A stretch of DNA of 32,860 nucleotides from Thermoanaerobaculia bacterium (GCA_045807605.1 JBJMGZ010000279.1:1-32860), one strand, 5' to 3'. Positions 17,614 through 28,255 are shown, counted from the first letter of the stretch. Translations and numbers: made by a program. The notes: a model not told the origin generated them from the sequence alone.

Positions 17614-18309
17614 TCATTGCGCACGCGCCGACAGGAGGAGCTGGTACCCGAGCAGCCCCGGCAGCAGGCGGGTGGCCGCCGACAGGGCGAGCGCCAGGGC
17701 GCCGAGCACGGGCTTGGGCAGGCGCGGCAGCAGGAGCGGCAGCGGGATGGTCGACACCGCCCGGCGCTCGACGACGAAGCCGGCCCTCTCCACCATCTCG
17801 CGCAGCGAGCGGGCGGTGAAGAAGTAGCGGTGGGTGCGGTCCAGGATGCCGCGGTCGGCGTAGGGGAAGCGGCCGAACAGCAGGTTGAGCCGCACGTAGA
17901 AGTTGGCCACGTTGGGGACGGACAGCAGCAGCAGCCCTCCCTTCGGCAGCGCCTCCCGGATCATCCGCAGCATGCCGTCCGGATCGGCGAGGTGCTCCAG
18001 CGTGTCGGCGGCCAGCACGGCGCCATAGCCGCGCGGCAGGCGCCCGATCGTCTCGAGGTCCACGATGGCGCCGCCGGAGAGCGTCCCGCGCAGGCCCGGC
18101 AGGCAGTCGAGCGAGCCTTCGAGCCCCACCCAGTCGAGATCGCCGCGCCGCACCAGGAGGGCGACGTGGGCCGGGCCGGGGCCGAGCTCGAGGATCCGGG
18201 TGCCGGCCGGCAATCCCTGGATCCAGCCCGCCAGGAGCCGGTGGCTCGAGCCGCGGAAGTCCTTGAGCACGTAGCGCTCGGCGGGGGAGGCGGGGCGTGG
18301 CGGGGTCAT
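17614..18309 (-). CDS. Class I SAM-dependent methyltransferase
   Basis: The ATG at 18309 overlaps the upstream stop (ATGA). Motifs are 'ILELGPGPAHVA', 'VLAADTLEHLADP' and 'LPKGGLLLLSVPN'. The C-terminal hydrophobic tail is 'IPLPLLLPRLPKPVLGALALAL'. The track ORF extension to 19518 is shadow. Confidence 0.8.
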   Translation of the reverse strand: MTPPRPASPAERYVLKDFRGSSHRLLAGWIQGLPAGTRILELGPGPAHVALLVRRGDLDWVGLEGSLDCLPGLRGTLSGGAIVDLETIGRLPRGYGAVLAADTLEHLADPDGMLRMIREALPKGGLLLLSVPNVANFYVRLNLLFGRFPYADRGILDRTHRYFFTARSLREMVERAGFVVERRAVSTIPLPLLLPRLPKPVLGALALALSAATRLLPGLLGYQLLLSARAQ

Positions 18310-19502
18310 GGCTCCTCTCGTTCGGCAGCGGAGCATACCGCGGCGATCCCGGCCGCCCCAACCTCCAGGGGGACGAGCCGGCCGGCTCCCAGGCGCGGCA
18401 GCCGGTCGCCCACGGCGCCAAGGTCGAACGCCACCACCGGCACGCCCGCGGCCCGGCACTCGTCGAGGATCAGGCTGTAGGACTCGGGCACGATCGAGAG
18501 CAGCAGCGCCAGGTCGACGCGGTCGCGGCGCAGGAGACGCGGCAGGGTGCCGCCGCGGTAGTAGCCGCGCACCCGGACGGGCAGCCGCCGCAGCCGGGCC
18601 AGGATCTCCGGATCGCCCCCGCCGTAGGCGCTCCAGCGCAGCCCCGATCCTGCCAGGAGCCGCACCACCTCCTCGAACACCAGCGCCCCCTTGTGCGCCT
18701 GCACCCCTCCGACCAGGGCGACGTGGCGCACCGGCCGTGCCTCCCGCGAAGGCAGGGGAGGGATTCCCGCGGCCGGCTCCACGATCCGCTGGCGTTCCGG
18801 AGGAAGCCCCGGGAAGAGCTCCGCGCAGGTCCGCCGCAGGAACTCGGACGGGAAGAGGAGGACCGAGGCGCTCGCCAGCAGCTCGGCCGAGATCGCCCGG
18901 CGCTCCGCCTGGTACGCGTCCTCGACCGGCCAGTCCTGGCGCAGGCAGCGCCCGCACCGTTCGAGATCGCGCGAGTACCAGCAGAACCGGAGCTGCGGGC
19001 GCTCCAGGAGGTGAGGGCGGGGGCAGAACGCGGCGAAGTCGTGCAGCGCGAGCCTCAGGTCCAGACCTCCGCGCCCGAGGCGGAGGAGAGAGCCGGGCGG
19101 CAGGCCGGCCAGCCCTTCGACGTGGACGGCCCCCGCCCCGAGGACTCCCGCCGCCGATCGGACCGCATTTTCGAACGCGGCATCCTCCAGGGCGATCGGC
19201 GAGGGGGGAGCTCCGGGGAAGGTCATGGACCTCCCCTGGACCTCCAGCCGCCACCCGGCCGCCTCGGGGTACAGGAGCGCGGTGCCAGGCTCCAGGCGGC
19301 GGAGGAGATGCGCCTGGACTCCGCCCAGCCGGGGGGCCGGAGGCGTCGCCGAGAGGTGGAGGACGGGAACGGGCGCGGGCCGCCAGCCCGGAGGAGCCGG
19401 GGAGAACGACCGTCGCCGCCGCGCTTCGGCGAGCCGGTCGAGCGCCCGGTCGCGGACCGCCAGGAGCCCCTCCGTCCGCAGCACCCGCCAGGCAACCCTC
19501 AT
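18306..19502 (-). CDS. GT-B/GT4-like glycosyltransferase with Cys-rich insertion
   Basis: 398 aa. Its start overlaps the upstream stop (ATGA at 19499-19502). The cysteine pattern 'FCPRPHLL...RFCWYSRDLERCGRC' matches that of the next gene. The C-terminal half, 'VALVGGVQAHKG...SIVPESYSLILDECRAAGVPVVAFDLGA', resembles the GT4 sugar-donor domain. This is the weakest family call among the GTs. Confidence 0.6.
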   Translation of the reverse strand: MRVAWRVLRTEGLLAVRDRALDRLAEARRRRSFSPAPPGWRPAPVPVLHLSATPPAPRLGGVQAHLLRRLEPGTALLYPEAAGWRLEVQGRSMTFPGAPPSPIALEDAAFENAVRSAAGVLGAGAVHVEGLAGLPPGSLLRLGRGGLDLRLALHDFAAFCPRPHLLERPQLRFCWYSRDLERCGRCLRQDWPVEDAYQAERRAISAELLASASVLLFPSEFLRRTCAELFPGLPPERQRIVEPAAGIPPLPSREARPVRHVALVGGVQAHKGALVFEEVVRLLAGSGLRWSAYGGGDPEILARLRRLPVRVRGYYRGGTLPRLLRRDRVDLALLLSIVPESYSLILDECRAAGVPVVAFDLGAVGDRLPRLGAGRLVPLEVGAAGIAAVCSAAEREEP

Positions 19503-21532
19503 CGCAGCACGCGCTCATAGACCGCCTCGATCTCCTCGGCGTGCTCGTCCATCCCCTTGACCCGGGGCAGGGCGGCGGCCCAGCGGTCCAGGATCTCCGG
19601 CTCCGCGATCAGGCGCTCGATCCAGCCGCGCAGCGCCGCCGGGTCTTCCGGATCGAAGAGAGCGCCGTACTCGCCGTCGAACATCTCGGGCAGCGCGCCG
19701 CGGTCGCTCGCCAGCACCGGCACGCCGTGGTGCATGGCCTCGCGGGCGACCAGGCCGAAGGATTCGAGCCCGAGCGAAGGGACGATCAGCGCGTCCATCT
19801 GCGCGAAGATCGCGGGCTTGCGCTCCTCCTCGAACGGCGGATCGCCCCAGACCGTCAGCCTCGCCTTCCCGGGGTCGATCTCCTCGAAGGCGGCGGTTGC
19901 CACGCGGATCCCCTTGTGCGGCAGGCTGGAGCCGATGGCTCCGAAGCGGAGAGGCTTTCCTCTCTCCCTTTGCAGGCGCGGCGTCAGCTCGACGCCGTAG
20001 GGGATCACGAAGACTTCGTCCTTCGGCCGCAGGTAGCCCAGGTCGAGGTAGCTCCGGTGGATGAAGCGGGAGCCCATGACGAAGGCCGCCGCGCTCCTCA
20101 GGGCCTTCTTCATCAGGGCGAAGCGGTAGACGTAGAGCGCCCGGTTGAGGAGAGAGACGCGGGTCAGCGGACGGCAGGCCGCGCATTTGCCCAGGCCCGG
20201 ACCGCTGCACAGGCGGCCCCAGGCGTCGAGCAGGTTCACGCGGGCGCAGGGCTGCCACCAGTCCTGGATCTGGAAGACGATCGGGATCCCCTGCCGCGCC
20301 GCCGCTCCGACCAGGGACGCGGCGTGGCCGGCCAGGTGATGGACGTGGAGGAGCTGCGGGCGGGTCTCGTCGAGCAGGCGCGCGAAGTCCCGCTCCAGCG
20401 CCCGGTCGCGCAGCGCGTTGCGCGACAGCGGGTCGCGTTGGGTGAAGTTGTTCACGGTCAGCCGCACGCGGGCGCCGTGGTCGAGGAACTCGACGACGCT
20501 CCCCTTGACCCGCTCGGGGTCGGCGATGCGCGCGTAGACCGTGACCTCCCGGTGGCGGGCCTGCCTGCGGACGAGCCCGGCGGCATAGAGCTCCGTGCCC
20601 GCGGAGTTCCAGGGCGGCCAGCCATGGACCAGGTGCAGCACCCGCTCGGGGCGGCTTGCAGCGCTCCGCGCCGGAACGATCGCCGAAACAACCCGCTCGC
20701 GCAGGGGGCGGATCGGGTCCTCGCGGACGAACCTGGCCACCGTGGCCAGGTACTCGGGGTGGAGCCGCCGCATGGCGCCGAGGGCGTACCTAACCAGCTC
20801 GGCCCGCCGCGTGCCGAAGCTGCGCTGGCCTTCGTGGAAGATGAAGGTGGCGTCGTCGAGGACGTGGGCATAGCCGGCCTTGAGCGCCCGCATGCAGAAA
20901 TCGGTCTCCTCGCCGTAGCCCTCGCCGAAGCTCCCGGCGTCGAAGAGCCCGATCCCGTCGAGGACCTTCCGCTTGATGTAGAGGCAGAAGCCGACGCCGG
21001 TGGGCAGGCGCGGGTAGGCCCGCAGGGAGCGCTCCTCCACCAGCCGGCCGAGCCGTTCGACATCCCAGCCGGTCGGGAGGGCATTGGTCTCCCCGACCCG
21101 GGGGAGAGAGCAGATCGTGGCGCTGTTCGAGAACGGGGTGACGGTGGCGATCTCCGGCGCCGAGTACGCGGCCTCCTGGAGCTTGGCGACCCAGCGGGAG
21201 GTGACCCGCGTGTCGCTGTTGAGCAGGATGACGTCCCGGTCGTCCGAGACGGACATGCCGAGGTTGACGCTCACCACGAACCCCTGGCGCTCGGGATTGC
21301 TCAGGACCAGGACGCTCTCCGGCGGCCGCGGCATCCCCGGCGGCTGGGGACCGTCGAGCACGACGATCAGCCGGTGTTTCTGCAGGTCGGTGTGGGCGAG
21401 CAGGCTTTCGAGGCAGCGGCCGAAGACCTCCGGCGCTCCGGCCACGGGCACGATCACGTCCACGGGTCCGGGGGGGCGGTCGGGAGGGACCCGCGAAGGG
21501 TCTCCCTGGAGCGGCAGGGGAGCGGCACGCAT
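19499..21532 (-). CDS. Bifunctional GT2 - GT4 glycosyltransferase with Cys-rich insertion
   Basis: ATG at 21532, 677 aa. The N-terminus has 'VDVIVPVAGAPE...VILLNSDTRV...GEETDFCMRA' (GT2). The C-terminus has 'LHLVHGWPPWNSAGTE...HVHHLAGH...PSLGLESFGLVAREAMHHGVPVLASDRGALPE' (GT4). The insertion is 'WWQPCARVNLLDAWGRLCSGPGLGKCAAC'. The track ORF upstream to 23257 is shadow. Confidence 0.85.
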   Translation of the reverse strand: MRAAPLPLQGDPSRVPPDRPPGPVDVIVPVAGAPEVFGRCLESLLAHTDLQKHRLIVVLDGPQPPGMPRPPESVLVLSNPERQGFVVSVNLGMSVSDDRDVILLNSDTRVTSRWVAKLQEAAYSAPEIATVTPFSNSATICSLPRVGETNALPTGWDVERLGRLVEERSLRAYPRLPTGVGFCLYIKRKVLDGIGLFDAGSFGEGYGEETDFCMRALKAGYAHVLDDATFIFHEGQRSFGTRRAELVRYALGAMRRLHPEYLATVARFVREDPIRPLRERVVSAIVPARSAASRPERVLHLVHGWPPWNSAGTELYAAGLVRRQARHREVTVYARIADPERVKGSVVEFLDHGARVRLTVNNFTQRDPLSRNALRDRALERDFARLLDETRPQLLHVHHLAGHAASLVGAAARQGIPIVFQIQDWWQPCARVNLLDAWGRLCSGPGLGKCAACRPLTRVSLLNRALYVYRFALMKKALRSAAAFVMGSRFIHRSYLDLGYLRPKDEVFVIPYGVELTPRLQRERGKPLRFGAIGSSLPHKGIRVATAAFEEIDPGKARLTVWGDPPFEEERKPAIFAQMDALIVPSLGLESFGLVAREAMHHGVPVLASDRGALPEMFDGEYGALFDPEDPAALRGWIERLIAEPEILDRWAAALPRVKGMDEHAEEIEAVYERVLR

Positions 21533-21583
21533 GGGCGGAAGGCACGGTATCACCGTTGTGCTACGATCCGCGCCCGATATCGC

Positions 21584-21595
21584 CATGAAAGCGGC

Positions 21596-21605
<10 letters not shown>
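21584..21605 (+). repeat. 11-bp tandem duplication spanning the start codon, creating a 4-codon upstream mini-ORF
   Basis: The sequence is CATGAAAGCGG CATGAAAGCGA. The first ATG (21585) reads MKAA-stop. Its TGA (21597-21599) overlaps the second ATG (21596), which opens the 482-aa gene starting MKAN. Confidence 0.6.
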
Positions 21606-23044
<1,439 letters not shown>

Positions 23045-23064
23045 ACGGCGGCATGGCTCACACC

Positions 23065-23165
23065 CACGGACGGACACGGACGGACACGGACAGACACGGA
23101 CAAAGGGGACCCGGAGCGCCGTCCCCAGGTCCGTGACCGTCCGTGGGGGTCCGTGTTCGTCCGTG
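23065..23165. repeat. Phased heptamer inverted-repeat element: 4 x CACGGAC and 4 x GTCCGTG, each set at exact 10-bp spacing
   Basis: CACGGAC occurs at 23065, 23075, 23085 and 23095. GTCCGTG occurs at 23129, 23139, 23149 and 23159. The 3-nt spacers differ between arms (GGA/GGA/AGA versus ACC/GGG/TTC). The centre carries GGGGAC (23105-23110) and GTCCCC (23121-23126). The element lies between the stop at 23044 and the start of the next gene, which it overlaps. Confidence 0.9.
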
Positions 23166-25535
23166 TCCGCCTGGATCGCGGCCGCGGCGGCGGCCCTGGT
23201 CGCGGTCTGGATGGACCTGTCGGCGCTCCACGCGTACCACACGGCCGACTCGTTCATCCCGGTCTTCGCCGGGCTCTACCGCTGGACCCCGTTCTTCTGG
23301 GAGCAGAACCGCTTCGGCCTGCTCATCCCGCTCCTCAGCCTGCCGATCGACTCGCCGTTCGCCAACCTGCTCTTCCAGGTGGGGCTGCGCCTCTTCGCGG
23401 TCGCCGCCGCCTTCTTCCTGCTCGCCCGGACCGTAGTGCCGCGGCCGTACTGGCCCGCGGTGGGAGCGCTGACGCTCGCGCTCTGGATCGGCGGCAAGGA
23501 GATCCAGGCGCATGCCTTCATCCAGATGCAGCCCTATGGCCAGGCCGCGGCGCTCGGCCTGGCCGGCCTGCTGCTCCTGGAGCGCGGGCCCGGGTGGCGC
23601 CGCGCGGCCGGGCTCGGGTTGATCCTCCTGGGCTCCTGGGTGTCGTTCACGGCCGTGCTCTGGCTCTTCCCCCTGGTGTGCGCCCGCTATCTTCTGTTCG
23701 ACAAGCTCCGGAAGGCCTGGCTCCCGCTCGCCGCCCTGGTCCTGTCGTCCGGCGCCAGCCTGCTCTTCTCGTGGCTGTCGATCTACCGGCTGTCGACCTC
23801 GTTCGCGGCGGCCGGCCCCGCGGACTGGCCGCGCGCCTGGCGCACGCTGGCGGCGCGGTCGGCGGACTACGTTTCGCTGCCGCTGGTGCTGGCCGCGCTC
23901 GGGCTGCTCGTCGTGGCCGCGCTCCTCAGGCGGCGGCTCGCGCTGTCGGCGGCGCTCTGCCTGCTGGCCGCGGGGCTGGGGGAGCTCCTCGTGGTCGGCA
24001 CCACGTTCTGGGCCGAGGCCAACGGCTGGAGCATCCGCTACGTGACCCTGGGGCTGCTCGCCCTGGGCATGCTCGCGCCCGCCCTGGCCCTCATCCTGGT
24101 GCTGGAGGGACGGCCGGAGCGCTGGCACCGGGCCGCGAACGCCCTGGCGCTCCTGGCGCTCTTCTCGGCCGCGGCGCTGCGCTACGGCGCGCCTTCCGTG
24201 CAGGCGGCGCGCGCCGCGCTCGACACGTTCGGAGGCGCCACGGAGGAGATCCTCGCCGCGCGCTGCACGCACATCCTCGGCGGCTACTGGCGCGCCTGGC
24301 CCGCGGCGTTCCATGCCGACATGGTGCGCTGGGAGCGCGGGGAGAGCACGCCGGTCTGGGTGATCACCTTCCGCTCCGGTCCGACCGAGCGCCTCTGGCG
24401 GCGCAAGGACTGGACCGGGACCCGCTTCGCCGTGCTGCGCGGCTTCCGCCAGGCGGCCGAGGACGCGCGCCGCCACGCCGGCCTGCCGCGGCTCGAGCTG
24501 ATCGAGGAGCGGCGGGACATCCTGGTCTACACGACACGCCGGGGCGGCCCGGATCTTGCTGTAAGCTCCGGCGCCATGACGAACGACCGCACGCCACAGA
24601 CCGTTTGCATCACCGGAGGAGCCGGCTTCATCGGCTCTCACCTTGCCGACGCCTTCCTCGCCCGCGACGGGCGGGTGCTGATCCTCGACGATCTTTCCGG
24701 AGGCCGGCGGGAGAACGTGCCCGCCGGCGCCGAGCTGCACGTGCTGGACATCCGCTCGCCCGAGGCGGCGGCGCTGGTGCGGGAGAGCGGCGTGGACGTG
24801 CTCGTCCATCACGCCGCGCAGATGGACGTGCGGCGCTCCGTGGAGGACCCCGCCTTCGACGCCGACGTGAACATCCTGGGCAGCCTCAACCTGGTAGATG
24901 CGGCGCGCCAGGGGGGCGTCAAGCAGGTGCTCTTCGCCTCGACCGGCGGCGCGATCTACGGCGAGCAGGACTACTTCCCGGCCGACGAGCAGCACCCGGC
25001 GCGGCCGGTGTCGCCCTACGGCGTCTCCAAGCTCGCGTTCGAGCGCTATCTCTTCTACTTTCACGTGGCCTACGGCCTCGACGCCGCCTGCCTGCGCTAC
25101 GCCAACGTCTATGGCGAGCGGCAGAACCCCCACGGCGAGGCCGGCGTGGTGGCGATCTTCCTGAGCCGCCTGCTCGCCGGCCAGGCGCCGACGATCAACG
25201 GCCCGGGGCTCCAGACGCGGGACTACGTGCACGTCTCCGACGTGGTGCGGGCGAACCTGCTGGCGGTGGGGAGGCCCGGCTTCCACATCTACAACGTGGG
25301 CACCGGCGTCGAGACCTCGGTCGTGGAGCTCTACCGCGAGCTTGCCCGCGCCGTGGGGAGCGATCTCGAGCCGCAGCACGGGCCGGCCAAGCCGGGCGAG
25401 CAGCAGCGCTCGGTCATCGACGCGCGCCTGATCAAGGCGCAGCTCGGCTGGCCCGACCCGCTGCCTCTGCGCCAGGGCATCGAGCGCACGGCCGCCTGGT
25501 TCCGCCAGCGCGCCGAGACCACCGTGCCGGCTTGA
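23133..25535 (+). CDS. Polytopic membrane protein (GT-C-like N-terminal motif) fused in frame to NAD-dependent sugar epimerase (GalE/SDR family)
   Basis: This is a single 800-aa frame with no stop. Residues ~1-370 are hydrophobic helices with 'YHTADSF' after TM1, followed by a ~110-aa soluble linker. From 24576 the sequence is 'MTNDRTPQTVCITGGAGFIGSHL...PVSPYGVSKLAFE...' (GxxGxxG and YxxxK of extended SDRs). The start is uncertain: GTG 23133, GTG 23163 or ATG 23211. Confidence 0.7.
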   Translation: MTVRGGPCSSVSAWIAAAAAALVAVWMDLSALHAYHTADSFIPVFAGLYRWTPFFWEQNRFGLLIPLLSLPIDSPFANLLFQVGLRLFAVAAAFFLLARTVVPRPYWPAVGALTLALWIGGKEIQAHAFIQMQPYGQAAALGLAGLLLLERGPGWRRAAGLGLILLGSWVSFTAVLWLFPLVCARYLLFDKLRKAWLPLAALVLSSGASLLFSWLSIYRLSTSFAAAGPADWPRAWRTLAARSADYVSLPLVLAALGLLVVAALLRRRLALSAALCLLAAGLGELLVVGTTFWAEANGWSIRYVTLGLLALGMLAPALALILVLEGRPERWHRAANALALLALFSAAALRYGAPSVQAARAALDTFGGATEEILAARCTHILGGYWRAWPAAFHADMVRWERGESTPVWVITFRSGPTERLWRRKDWTGTRFAVLRGFRQAAEDARRHAGLPRLELIEERRDILVYTTRRGGPDLAVSSGAMTNDRTPQTVCITGGAGFIGSHLADAFLARDGRVLILDDLSGGRRENVPAGAELHVLDIRSPEAAALVRESGVDVLVHHAAQMDVRRSVEDPAFDADVNILGSLNLVDAARQGGVKQVLFASTGGAIYGEQDYFPADEQHPARPVSPYGVSKLAFERYLFYFHVAYGLDAACLRYANVYGERQNPHGEAGVVAIFLSRLLAGQAPTINGPGLQTRDYVHVSDVVRANLLAVGRPGFHIYNVGTGVETSVVELYRELARAVGSDLEPQHGPAKPGEQQRSVIDARLIKAQLGWPDPLPLRQGIERTAAWFRQRAETTVPA

Positions 25536-27464: not shown

Positions 27465-28255
27465 ACCGCGATCGGCGCCTTGATGGCCGGGTGGGGATCG
27501 TAGCCGGTGAGCTGGAAGTCCTCGTAGCGGTAGGCGAACAGGGACTTCACCTCGGGGCTGATCTCCATCCGCGGCAGCGGCCGCGGCTCGCGGGCGAGCT
27601 GCAGCCGCGCCTGCTCCAGGTGGTTGAGATAGAGGTGGGCGTCGCCCAGTGTGTGGACGAATTCGGCCGGCTCCAGGTCCGTGGCGCGGGCCACCATCAT
27701 CGTGAGGAGAGCGTAGGAGGCGATGTTGAACGGCACGCCGAGGAACACGTCGGCGCTCCTCTGGTAGAGCTGGCAGGAGAGGCGCCCGTTCGCCACCCAG
27801 AACTGGAACAGGGTGTGGCAGGGAGGGAGCTTCATCCTGTCCACCTCGGCCACGTTCCAGGCGCTCACGATATGGCGCCGGGAGTCGGGGTTGCGCCGGA
27901 TCTGCTCGACGACCTTCGCGATCTGGTCGATGCTGCCGCCGTCCGGAGTCGGCCACGAGCGCCACTGCCTGCCGTAGACCGGGCCGAGCTCGCCGTCCGC
28001 GTCGGCCCACTCGTCCCAGATCGTCACCCCGTGCTCGCGCAGGTAGGCGACGTTGGTGCTGCCCGACAGGAACCAGAGCAGCTCGTGGAGGATCGAGCGC
28101 AGGTGGAGCTTCTTGGTGGTGAGCGCCGGGAACCCCTGGGCCAGGTCGAAGCGCATCTGGTAGCCGAAGACGCTGAGCGTCCCGGTGCCGGTCCGGTCGG
28201 ACTTCTCGACCCCGTGCTCCAGGATGTGCCGGAGGAGGTCCAGGTATTGCAACAT
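27461..28255 (-). CDS. thyA: Thymidylate synthase (ThyA type)
   Basis: 264 aa. The sequence runs '[31 protein letters not shown]...[12 protein letters not shown]...[24 protein letters not shown]...GDAHLYLNH...IAV', including the catalytic Cys motif PPCH. The track ORF upstream of 28255 is shadow. Confidence 0.97.

Follow-up and report, generated by a model that had tools for sequence, protein, structure and literature searches.

What function, if any, is served by a 101-bp array of eight identical heptamers laid across the start of a gene? The question is raised by a DNA stretch of 32,860 nt from a Thermoanaerobaculia bacterium (GCA_045807605.1 JBJMGZ010000279.1:1-32860; here called the window), which has a G+C content of ~70% and whose closest protein relatives belong to the Thermoanaerobaculia. 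At positions 23065-23165, four copies of CACGGAC (23065, 23075, 23085 and 23095) are followed by four copies of the reverse complement GTCCGTG (23129, 23139, 23149 and 23159), both arrays in strict 10-bp phase and exactly where a first-pass annotation, made by a model from the sequence, had placed them. Our analysis indicates that this is a single member of a family of dispersed intergenic palindromes, apparently not described before, that occurs in many phyla and for which we propose the name phased-heptamer palindromes: convergent CACGGAC arrays with 10-bp spacing, a free central segment and no gene of their own.

The structure in the window is real and far from chance. The heptamer occurs 14 times in the window, compared with 6.86 ± 2.43 in dinucleotide-preserving shuffles, none of which reached 14 (0 of 100). 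Eight of these copies lie inside the 101 bp and the remaining six are scattered singles at about the chance level; the first-pass annotation had judged the singles correctly in this respect while listing four of them, missing those at 27677 and 29364. Both 10-bp arrays were detected by Tandem Repeats Finder, and an inverted-repeat search returned arms of 37 nt that are 84% complementary and separated by 27 nt. The parts of the element are as follows.

23065-23101, plus strand: left arm, four CACGGAC at 10-bp spacing with spacers GGA, GGA and AGA
23102-23128, plus strand: central region of 27 nt, with an inner stem of GGGGAC (23105-23110) and GTCCCC (23121-23126)
23113-23116, plus strand: GGAG, a conserved Shine-Dalgarno-like motif in the apical loop of the inner GGGGAC/GTCCCC stem
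23129-23165, plus strand: right arm, four GTCCGTG at 10-bp spacing with spacers ACC, GGG and TTC, also coding for the N-terminus of a membrane protein

The spacers, the inner stem and the 17-bp outer helix with its one G-U pair all agreed with the earlier description. The predicted RNA fold of positions 23040-23190 has a free energy of -91.8 kcal/mol (z = -4.97), and that of 23050-23180, the interval singled out by the first-pass annotation, -80.4 kcal/mol (z = -5.63); a fold of this predicted stability bears out the earlier proposal that the start of the next gene is buried in a hairpin.

A dispersed family in many phyla

A genome scan for three heptamers at 10-bp spacing, conducted on one genome per species, returned at least 119 loci in more than 12 phyla. 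The carriers are found in Acidobacteriota (Thermoanaerobaculia, Aminicenantes and Vicinamibacteria), Lentisphaerota, Verrucomicrobiota, Planctomycetota, Kiritimatiellae, Hydrogenedentota, Sumerlaeota, Armatimonadota, Nitrospirota, Gemmatimonadota, Myxococcota, Desulfobacterota, Spirochaetota, WOR-3, and Alpha- and Gammaproteobacteria, and one of them is an isolate (Marinobacter halophilus JCM 30472). The architecture (CACGGAC-N3)n, a centre of 7-122 nt and (GTCCGTG-N3)n recurs in ~50 of the loci listed. Among the matches listed, single metagenome-assembled genomes (MAGs) hold three to five or more loci each, and a second element lies within 8 kb in seven of the loci listed. The polarity of the arrays is strict: a partner arm is convergent (downstream) for 71 of 137 arrays and divergent (upstream) for none, and a count by cluster type gave 51 convergent versus 2. 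Neighbouring heptamers are spaced by 10 in 413 of ~500 pairs, with purine-rich spacers of which GAA, GGA and TGA are the commonest. The first-pass annotation had taken the array for an iteron or operator specific to its locus and had named dispersal as evidence against its view; the same architecture at so many unrelated loci, with no associated regulator, contradicts that assignment.

Arrays with other GGAC-type cores share the polarity (L027, L110 and L034). At L027 (4607-4686), a CAAGGAC/GTCCTTG palindrome with a 9-bp period has the same polarity, on a contig that also carries a CACGGAC element. A composite palindrome of ~330 bp in a Marinobacter MAG (L110 3880-4260) places CACGGAA outer arms around CACGGAC inner arms with a 120-nt centre. 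The giant version in a Vicinamibacteria MAG (L034 300-2050) has two arms of ~750 bp, the first of degenerate nCGGAY units about 10 bp apart and the second of the complementary units, around a centre of ~280 bp; it lies upstream of a PBP1A gene.

Evidence of spread comes from four elements, three in one Acidobacteriota MAG (L085 4482-4596, L111 1985-2098 and L117 1907-2007) and one in a second MAG (L087 3379-3505), which are 84-87% identical over the whole element (106-130 bp), including a loop that bears its own small hairpin, and which lie at unrelated loci. The boundaries of this copied subfamily are sharp (GA(C/T)CACGGAC ... GTCCGTG(G/A)TCTGCC), and whole-element identity, sharp boundaries and unrelated flanks together show copy-and-paste spread. 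Copies elsewhere within one MAG have only the heptamers in common. Other repeats of 51-55 bp with 93-96% identity are common to contigs of the same MAGs (L002 137-186 and L060 4637-4687; L004 3470-3524 and L056 6417-6471), and these are not heptamer arrays.

The elements are intergenic and favour sites past the ends of genes. Palindromic members are flanked by convergent genes in 9 cases, by co-directional genes in 11 and by divergent genes in 5, so that convergent pairs appear over-represented, and the upstream gene lies on the same strand in 20 versus 14 cases. A polymerase leaving a gene meets CACGGAC in the sense orientation 29 times versus 13 for GTCCGTG, and truly solitary arrays with variable spacers mostly follow the end of a same-strand gene. 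In bacterial genomes, arrays adjoining gene starts are mostly antisense (14 versus 5). The outer flanks are pyrimidine-rich with T enriched 1.8-fold, and low-GC members (L038, L051 and L045) have A- and T-tracts resembling those of bidirectional terminators. The 18 neighbouring open reading frames (ORFs) scanned are ordinary (PBP1A, HolB, PdxA, HtrA, a sigma-54 activator, DeoA/B-like, TsaD, VanY and others). Arrays on phage contigs (L132 3157-3193 and 7845-7871; L153 4013-4050) lie 5-40 nt past a stop codon and 10-40 nt ahead of the next start; such arrays separate portal from protease genes and MuA-like from MuB-like genes, and GAAGAA precedes each L132 array. No candidate binder was evident in the array-bearing phage contigs.

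Constraint on heptamers and on pairing

Nine orthologous loci were compared, and these fall into four states.

Window, L121 and L207: full palindrome with 4+4 units
L123: full palindrome with 3+4 units
L204 (closest relative, 92% DNA identity): right four units only, abutting the stop codon, two units slightly decayed
L120, L206, L208 and L217: element absent, intergenic gap of 10-30 nt

In a neighbour-joining tree built from 441 nt of flanking coding DNA, the five carriers group together (7-9% divergence), with L120 as sister and L206, L208 and L217 as outgroups. The element is confined to this small Thermoanaerobaculia clade, and the simplest history is that its ancestor gained one copy, between two tightly linked polysaccharide genes, and that L204 later lost the left arm and loop. 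Conservation at orthologous loci, on which the earlier interpretation depended, is found in the carrier clade; it fails in the sister and outgroups and is halved in L204.

Within the five orthologous loci of the clade, identity reaches 95-96% at heptamer positions and 42-50% in spacers; in the flanking gene it is 84% at third codon positions and 96% at the first and second. The spacers and loop thus evolve faster than the flanks, for which unit slippage or conversion between dispersed copies are candidate causes. The right arm is coding, yet the reading frame differs from heptamer to heptamer and the encoded peptides differ between orthologues (VTVRGGPCSSVS, MSVSVRGRPWSSV, VKVRVSPCWSV and VKVHVGPCVSV), indicating that the constraint acts on the nucleotides.

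The pairing between the arms is less well maintained. In 45 palindromic members, opposed spacers are Watson-Crick paired at 39.5% of positions versus 31.2 ± 2.8% for shuffled partners, and 17 of 86 spacers are fully pairable. Among deviant heptamers, 4 are compensated on the other arm versus 49 that break the pair, so the covariation check proposed by the first-pass annotation found no compensatory change, and its contention that selection acts on the heptamers and not on continuous pairing was upheld. Deviations cluster at heptamer positions 3 and 4, leaving the core C-A-n-n-G-A-C; in degenerate units, 13 of 39 deviations fall on G4 of CACGGAC, more than on any other position, and A2 varies too. 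The balance of G-U and A-C mismatches (6 versus 18) is uninformative.

In the viral collection, arrays of two control heptamers of matching composition were found at 16 and 28 loci, compared with 37 for CACGGAC. Spacers are identical in 81% and 96% of the control arrays and in 22-28% of the CACGGAC arrays; the control arrays, being perfect tandem 10-mers in these proportions, are plain tandem duplications. A convergent pattern appeared among the controls in one weak three-copy cluster only (L189, ++-). Among the heptamers compared in this collection, the combination of a fixed 7-mer with free spacers is specific to CACGGAC. Taken together, each heptamer is constrained on its own, independently of pairing, which implies a putative trans-acting factor common to many phyla. 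A hairpin alone does not explain the heptamer constraint, the 10-bp phase and the strict convergence, which argues for a sequence-specific reader of either the DNA or the sense RNA.

The host locus and a proposed mechanism

The element of the window lies in a polysaccharide locus, in the gap between the stop codon of a GT2-methyltransferase gene and a membrane-protein gene. The features that adjoin or overlap it are listed here.

23042-23044, plus strand: TAG stop codon of the upstream GT2+methyltransferase gene, whose C-terminus ...GLGIIAVATRTG* aligns with orthologues
23053-23136, plus strand: small ORF of 27 codons (ATG...TGA), read from the sequence, crossing the left arm and loop
23133-25535, plus strand: downstream ORF of 800 residues, a membrane protein of ~465 residues fused in frame to an NAD-dependent epimerase of ~315 residues
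23133-23135, plus strand: GTG, most likely start of the membrane protein and last three bases of right heptamer 1; the same position is used in L123 and L207
23163-23165, plus strand: GTG, alternative in-frame start and last three bases of right heptamer 4

On orthologous contigs the gene order is GT2+methyltransferase (~480 residues), membrane protein (~465), NAD-epimerase (~315) and a TonB_C protein. The GT2+methyltransferase of ~480 residues on these contigs shows that the window ORF of 1578 residues at 18308-23044 is over-extended; orthologues and BLASTN place the true extent of the gene at ~21596-23044 (~482 residues, start near ATG 21596). An 11-bp tandem duplication (CATGAAAGCGG, 1.9 copies; 21584-21604) falls exactly on this probable start and yields two in-frame ATGAAAGCGG starts, and two GT4-type genes occupy the minus strand at ~18400-21560. 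Downstream, the junction of the membrane protein and epimerase lies near 24530-24560 (...LAVSSGAMTND...). The two are fused likewise in L204, and are separate genes with an ATGA overlap in L120, L121 and L123.

Alignment with orthologues shows that the first transmembrane segment (AWIAAAAAALVAVW) begins directly after the right arm in the window, and in element-free orthologues the first transmembrane helix begins ~10 residues past the start codon. Because the helix follows the arm directly, the start codon is placed inside the right arm (GTG 23133 or 23163) and not at ATG 23211, in line with the earlier annotation, which had noted both GTG codons in frame with the downstream ORF. A Shine-Dalgarno motif in the loop (GGAG or AGGAGG) is kept in the window, L207, L123 and L121: it is AGGAGG 4 nt before an ATG start at the loop/arm junction in L121, GGAG 5 nt before GTG in L207 and GGAG 8 nt before GTG in L123. 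The hairpins predicted for the window, L121 and L207 range from -75 to -80 kcal/mol (z = -5.5 to -9.2), while a comparable fold is absent from the arm-deleted L204 (z = +0.7). The TGA of the 27-codon ORF, which begins 9 nt after the upstream stop, overlaps GTG 23133 (GTGA). This ORF may relay ribosomes through the hairpin or provide translational coupling; it is specific to the window, with no equivalent in L121, L123 or L207.

Intercistronic hairpins of repetitive extragenic palindromic (REP) sequences can affect mRNA stability and downstream expression, and by analogy we infer an RNA-level role for the element at this locus. In the polycistronic transcript, the arms would fold into the segmented hairpin of -75 to -80 kcal/mol, which could give the upstream cistron a protective or attenuating 3' structure. 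The apical loop would display the Shine-Dalgarno motif of the next gene, and the top of the stem would bury its GTG start. Downstream expression would then be throttled and would need processing or unwinding, for example by ribosomes, which in the window could be those translating the 27-codon ORF ending in GTGA.

Known repeats and competing explanations

Database and literature searches support the earlier view that the element is not a recognised REP, miniature inverted-repeat transposable element (MITE) or Rfam family. At the gathering score the window had no match in Rfam 15, and the E-value mode gave sub-threshold models of miRNA-precursor hairpins only; BLASTN against plasmids and phages gave no match to the element. 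Literature searches with literal 17-mer array strings and with concepts returned no description, and heptamer queries matched only primers and hammerhead-ribozyme constructs. At L014 (1933-1977, minus strand) an Acido-Lenti-1 RNA (RF01687, scoring 38.2 bits where the gathering cutoff is 37) is found ~275 nt from an array; this was rejected as coincidence, the RNA being absent from 18 other array-bearing loci. Weak resemblances to degenerate consensus motifs (the AlgR 9-mer, gyrase YRTGNYNNY, the ops/elemental pause, RNase P CR-I and 16S helix 18) are not used as support.

The closest likeness is to REP sequences and their doublets (REPINs). GTAG- or CGTC-tagged REPs have a stem of 5-13 bp, a loop of 2-20 nt and an overall length of 20-40 bp, and one of their ends carries an unpaired tetranucleotide, GTAG or CGTC (Di Nocera et al. 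2013, PMC3733652). A classical REP is excluded by dimensions, since the window arms span 37 nt (four 10-bp units) around a centre of 27 nt, and by the tag, as no GTAG is found in or beside 23065-23165 and CGTC occurs solely within the right arm. REPINs and REP doublets share with our element a non-coding hairpin of ~100 bp with conserved inverted arms and a less conserved spacer. They too are extragenic, frequently downstream of a coding region and flanked by convergent or unidirectional genes; they are dispersed in several copies per genome, and their intercistronic copies can shape mRNA stability and downstream expression (Bertels & Rainey 2011, PMC3116915; PMC3733652). The flanks of the palindromic members (9, 11 and 5, from crude gene calls) agree with such a location. 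In contrast, our arms are tandem 7-mers in 10-bp phase and theirs a 20-40-bp imperfect palindrome with an unpaired tag; REP sequences are lineage-specific whereas our heptamer is the same across phyla; and in our case no REP-associated tyrosine transposase (RAYT) was seen among the 18 neighbouring ORFs and copy number appears low. With MITEs the element shares terminal inverted repeats, the lack of coding capacity, and dispersed copies alike over their full length with unrelated flanks (L085, L111, L117 and L087). It differs from them in that neither a target-site duplication nor a parent insertion sequence was found, and in that copies within a genome mostly share the heptamers only, with unit number and centre length varying freely.

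Other systems resemble the element in part. Phased protein-binding arrays (ParR-parC of plasmid R1, MraZ boxes, OmpR/PhoB-family direct repeats and L5 stoperators) likewise consist of short oriented motifs about one helical turn apart with unconstrained spacers, but occur at one or a few regulatory loci with a known adjoining or controlling protein, whereas ours are dispersed, convergent, mostly at gene ends and in many phyla. A plasmid iteron, partition site or operator, as a unique site beside the gene of its binder, is not what was found: the arrays are dispersed beside housekeeping genes. Bidirectional intrinsic terminators share the GC-rich hairpin between gene ends, the purine-rich upstream and pyrimidine- or T-enriched downstream flanks, and the A- and T-tracts of the low-GC members, but the window copy and most high-GC copies have no U-tract, a terminator needs no conserved stem sequence, and the window copy lies inside an operon over a start codon. 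Promoter and terminator scans called neither at the element, where a GC hairpin with a U-tract within 0-2 nt would mark an intrinsic terminator, and no promoter-like site was found in or near it. Mycobacterial interspersed repetitive units (MIRUs) are also intercistronic repeats within operons and resemble the window in its small ORF crossing the repeat with a stop overlapping the start (GTGA); they are, however, direct repeats of 40-100 bp and not palindromic heptamer arrays, and our small ORF is not conserved in orthologues.

On dispersal, copying, extragenic location and hairpin potential, we place the element with REPIN/MITE-like repeats. That it is an extragenic palindrome of this kind, forming here an intercistronic hairpin that buries the downstream start and whose heptamers are read by a putative factor, is a reading to which we give an even chance. 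Several results weigh against it. No direct repeat was found as a target-site duplication at the boundaries of the copied subfamily, no convergent array pair 1-5 kb apart that could be a parent element is present in the 119 loci listed, the 18 neighbouring ORFs scanned against Pfam include no transposase, and a degenerate scan of the 32.9-kb window found no second array. The window copy is followed by the tail TCCGCCTGGA without a U-tract and is not a canonical intrinsic terminator; the phage arrays are solitary, sense-strand and between cistrons of late and early operons, where termination is unexpected. L204 still has the gene after losing the left arm and loop, which makes the hairpin dispensable there. 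The missing compensatory change means that pairing itself may not be under selection, in which case two convergent arrays of protein-binding sites could have produced the hairpin incidentally. Furthermore, gene context relies on crude gene calls (ORF length and third-position G+C), the taxonomy of the carriers on the record titles of MAGs, copies per genome are lower bounds, and the control heptamers represent the viral collection only.

In a DNA-level alternative, each heptamer is a site for a small sequence-specific DNA-binding protein that stacks on one helical face, and convergent arrays act as a polar bidirectional barrier, insulator, roadblock or topological site at the edges of transcription units, the hairpin being incidental. 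Individually constrained heptamers with free spacers, the strict phasing, convergence at any centre length from 7 to 122 nt, solitary arrays oriented relative to incoming transcription, operons bracketed by elements at both ends (L043 and L106) and the ~750-bp arms of L034 would all follow from it, and precedents exist in the oriented stoperators of mycobacteriophage L5 and in the phased repeats bound by MraZ, ParR and OmpR-family proteins. Against this, no candidate protein was found, none being encoded beside the arrays; a roadblock would be harmful within phage late or early operons or between co-transcribed genes as in the window; one DNA-binding specificity across more than 12 phyla would be unusual; and the strand bias is modest and comes from crude gene calls. 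We consider a boundary element possible at roughly one half the weight given to the REPIN/MITE-like repeat. Somewhat less probable still is a selfish or neutral repeat with no function here, a mobile hairpin or slippage product in a tolerant site whose heptamers are kept uniform by stem-templated repair and ectopic conversion and not by selection. In its favour, elements have been copied from locus to locus, adjacent identical spacers attest to slippage, the turnover of spacers and loop beyond that of the flanks suggests conversion or replacement, and the element is dispensable in L204 and absent from L120; but conversion within an element cannot explain the same heptamer across phyla or conserved solitary arrays that have no partner arm, copies in one MAG usually have only heptamers in common, and the layout with the Shine-Dalgarno motif in the loop and the start in the arm is conserved at this locus.

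An RNA-protein switch, in which a protein that binds RNA as an oligomer, much as TRAP, HutP or CsrA do, occupies a single-stranded (CACGGAC-N3)n arm, the 3' arm competes and occupancy sets attenuation or start occlusion, appears improbable. Whichever strand is transcribed, the CACGGAC arm always comes first, solitary arrays in phage operons are mostly sense, after stops and just ahead of ribosome-binding sites, and the unit ACACGGACGA superficially matches the RsmE/CsrA consensus (A/U)CANGGANG(U/A). In degenerate units the first G of GGA is nevertheless the most variable position and A2 varies too, which rules out CsrA, a protein that requires GGA; palindromic copies have the motif in the stem and not in loops; bacterial arrays near gene starts are mostly antisense; and no protein was identified. 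A CsrA/Rsm site or sponge, the mark of which is an invariant GGA that as a rule is exposed in a hairpin loop, was accordingly rejected on the variable GGA and the stem position. By far the least probable is the locus-specific operator or iteron, through which a regulator of the polysaccharide locus would bind eight sites and control initiation of the membrane-epimerase gene: phased sites are conserved in four full orthologous copies and overlap the start codon, but arrays of the type adjoin housekeeping genes at unrelated loci and in other phyla, sister and outgroup orthologues with the same operon carry no element, the left half is gone in the closest relative, and no promoter-like site was found in or near the element.

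Beyond the REPIN/MITE-like placement, we tentatively suggest, at a confidence well short of even, that the heptamer arrays are the cis-sites of a widespread system, operating in many phyla and their phages, whose conserved factor would recognise CACGGAC at each 10-bp or 10-nt step and so mark or insulate the places where transcription units end. Convergent pairs would act in both directions, and a new mechanism would account for the spread of copies. The factor could be a protein, or a universal machine such as RNA polymerase (through 10-nt-phased G(-10)/Y(-1)G(+1) pause signals) or DNA gyrase.

If the family is as it appears, it would represent cross-phylum extragenic repeats whose conserved unit is a 7-mer and not the hairpin, and would point to a sequence-specific reader common to distant bacteria and phages. 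Its carriers include poorly studied groups (Acidobacteriota, the Planctomycetes-Verrucomicrobia-Chlamydiae (PVC) group and Hydrogenedentota) in which terminators and operon boundaries are largely uncharacterised. The GTG codons present in every right arm also mean that gene callers will mis-extend starts into the arrays. At the locus described here, the repeat gives a membrane protein both its start codon and its N-terminus, a clear exaptation of a repeat into a coding region.

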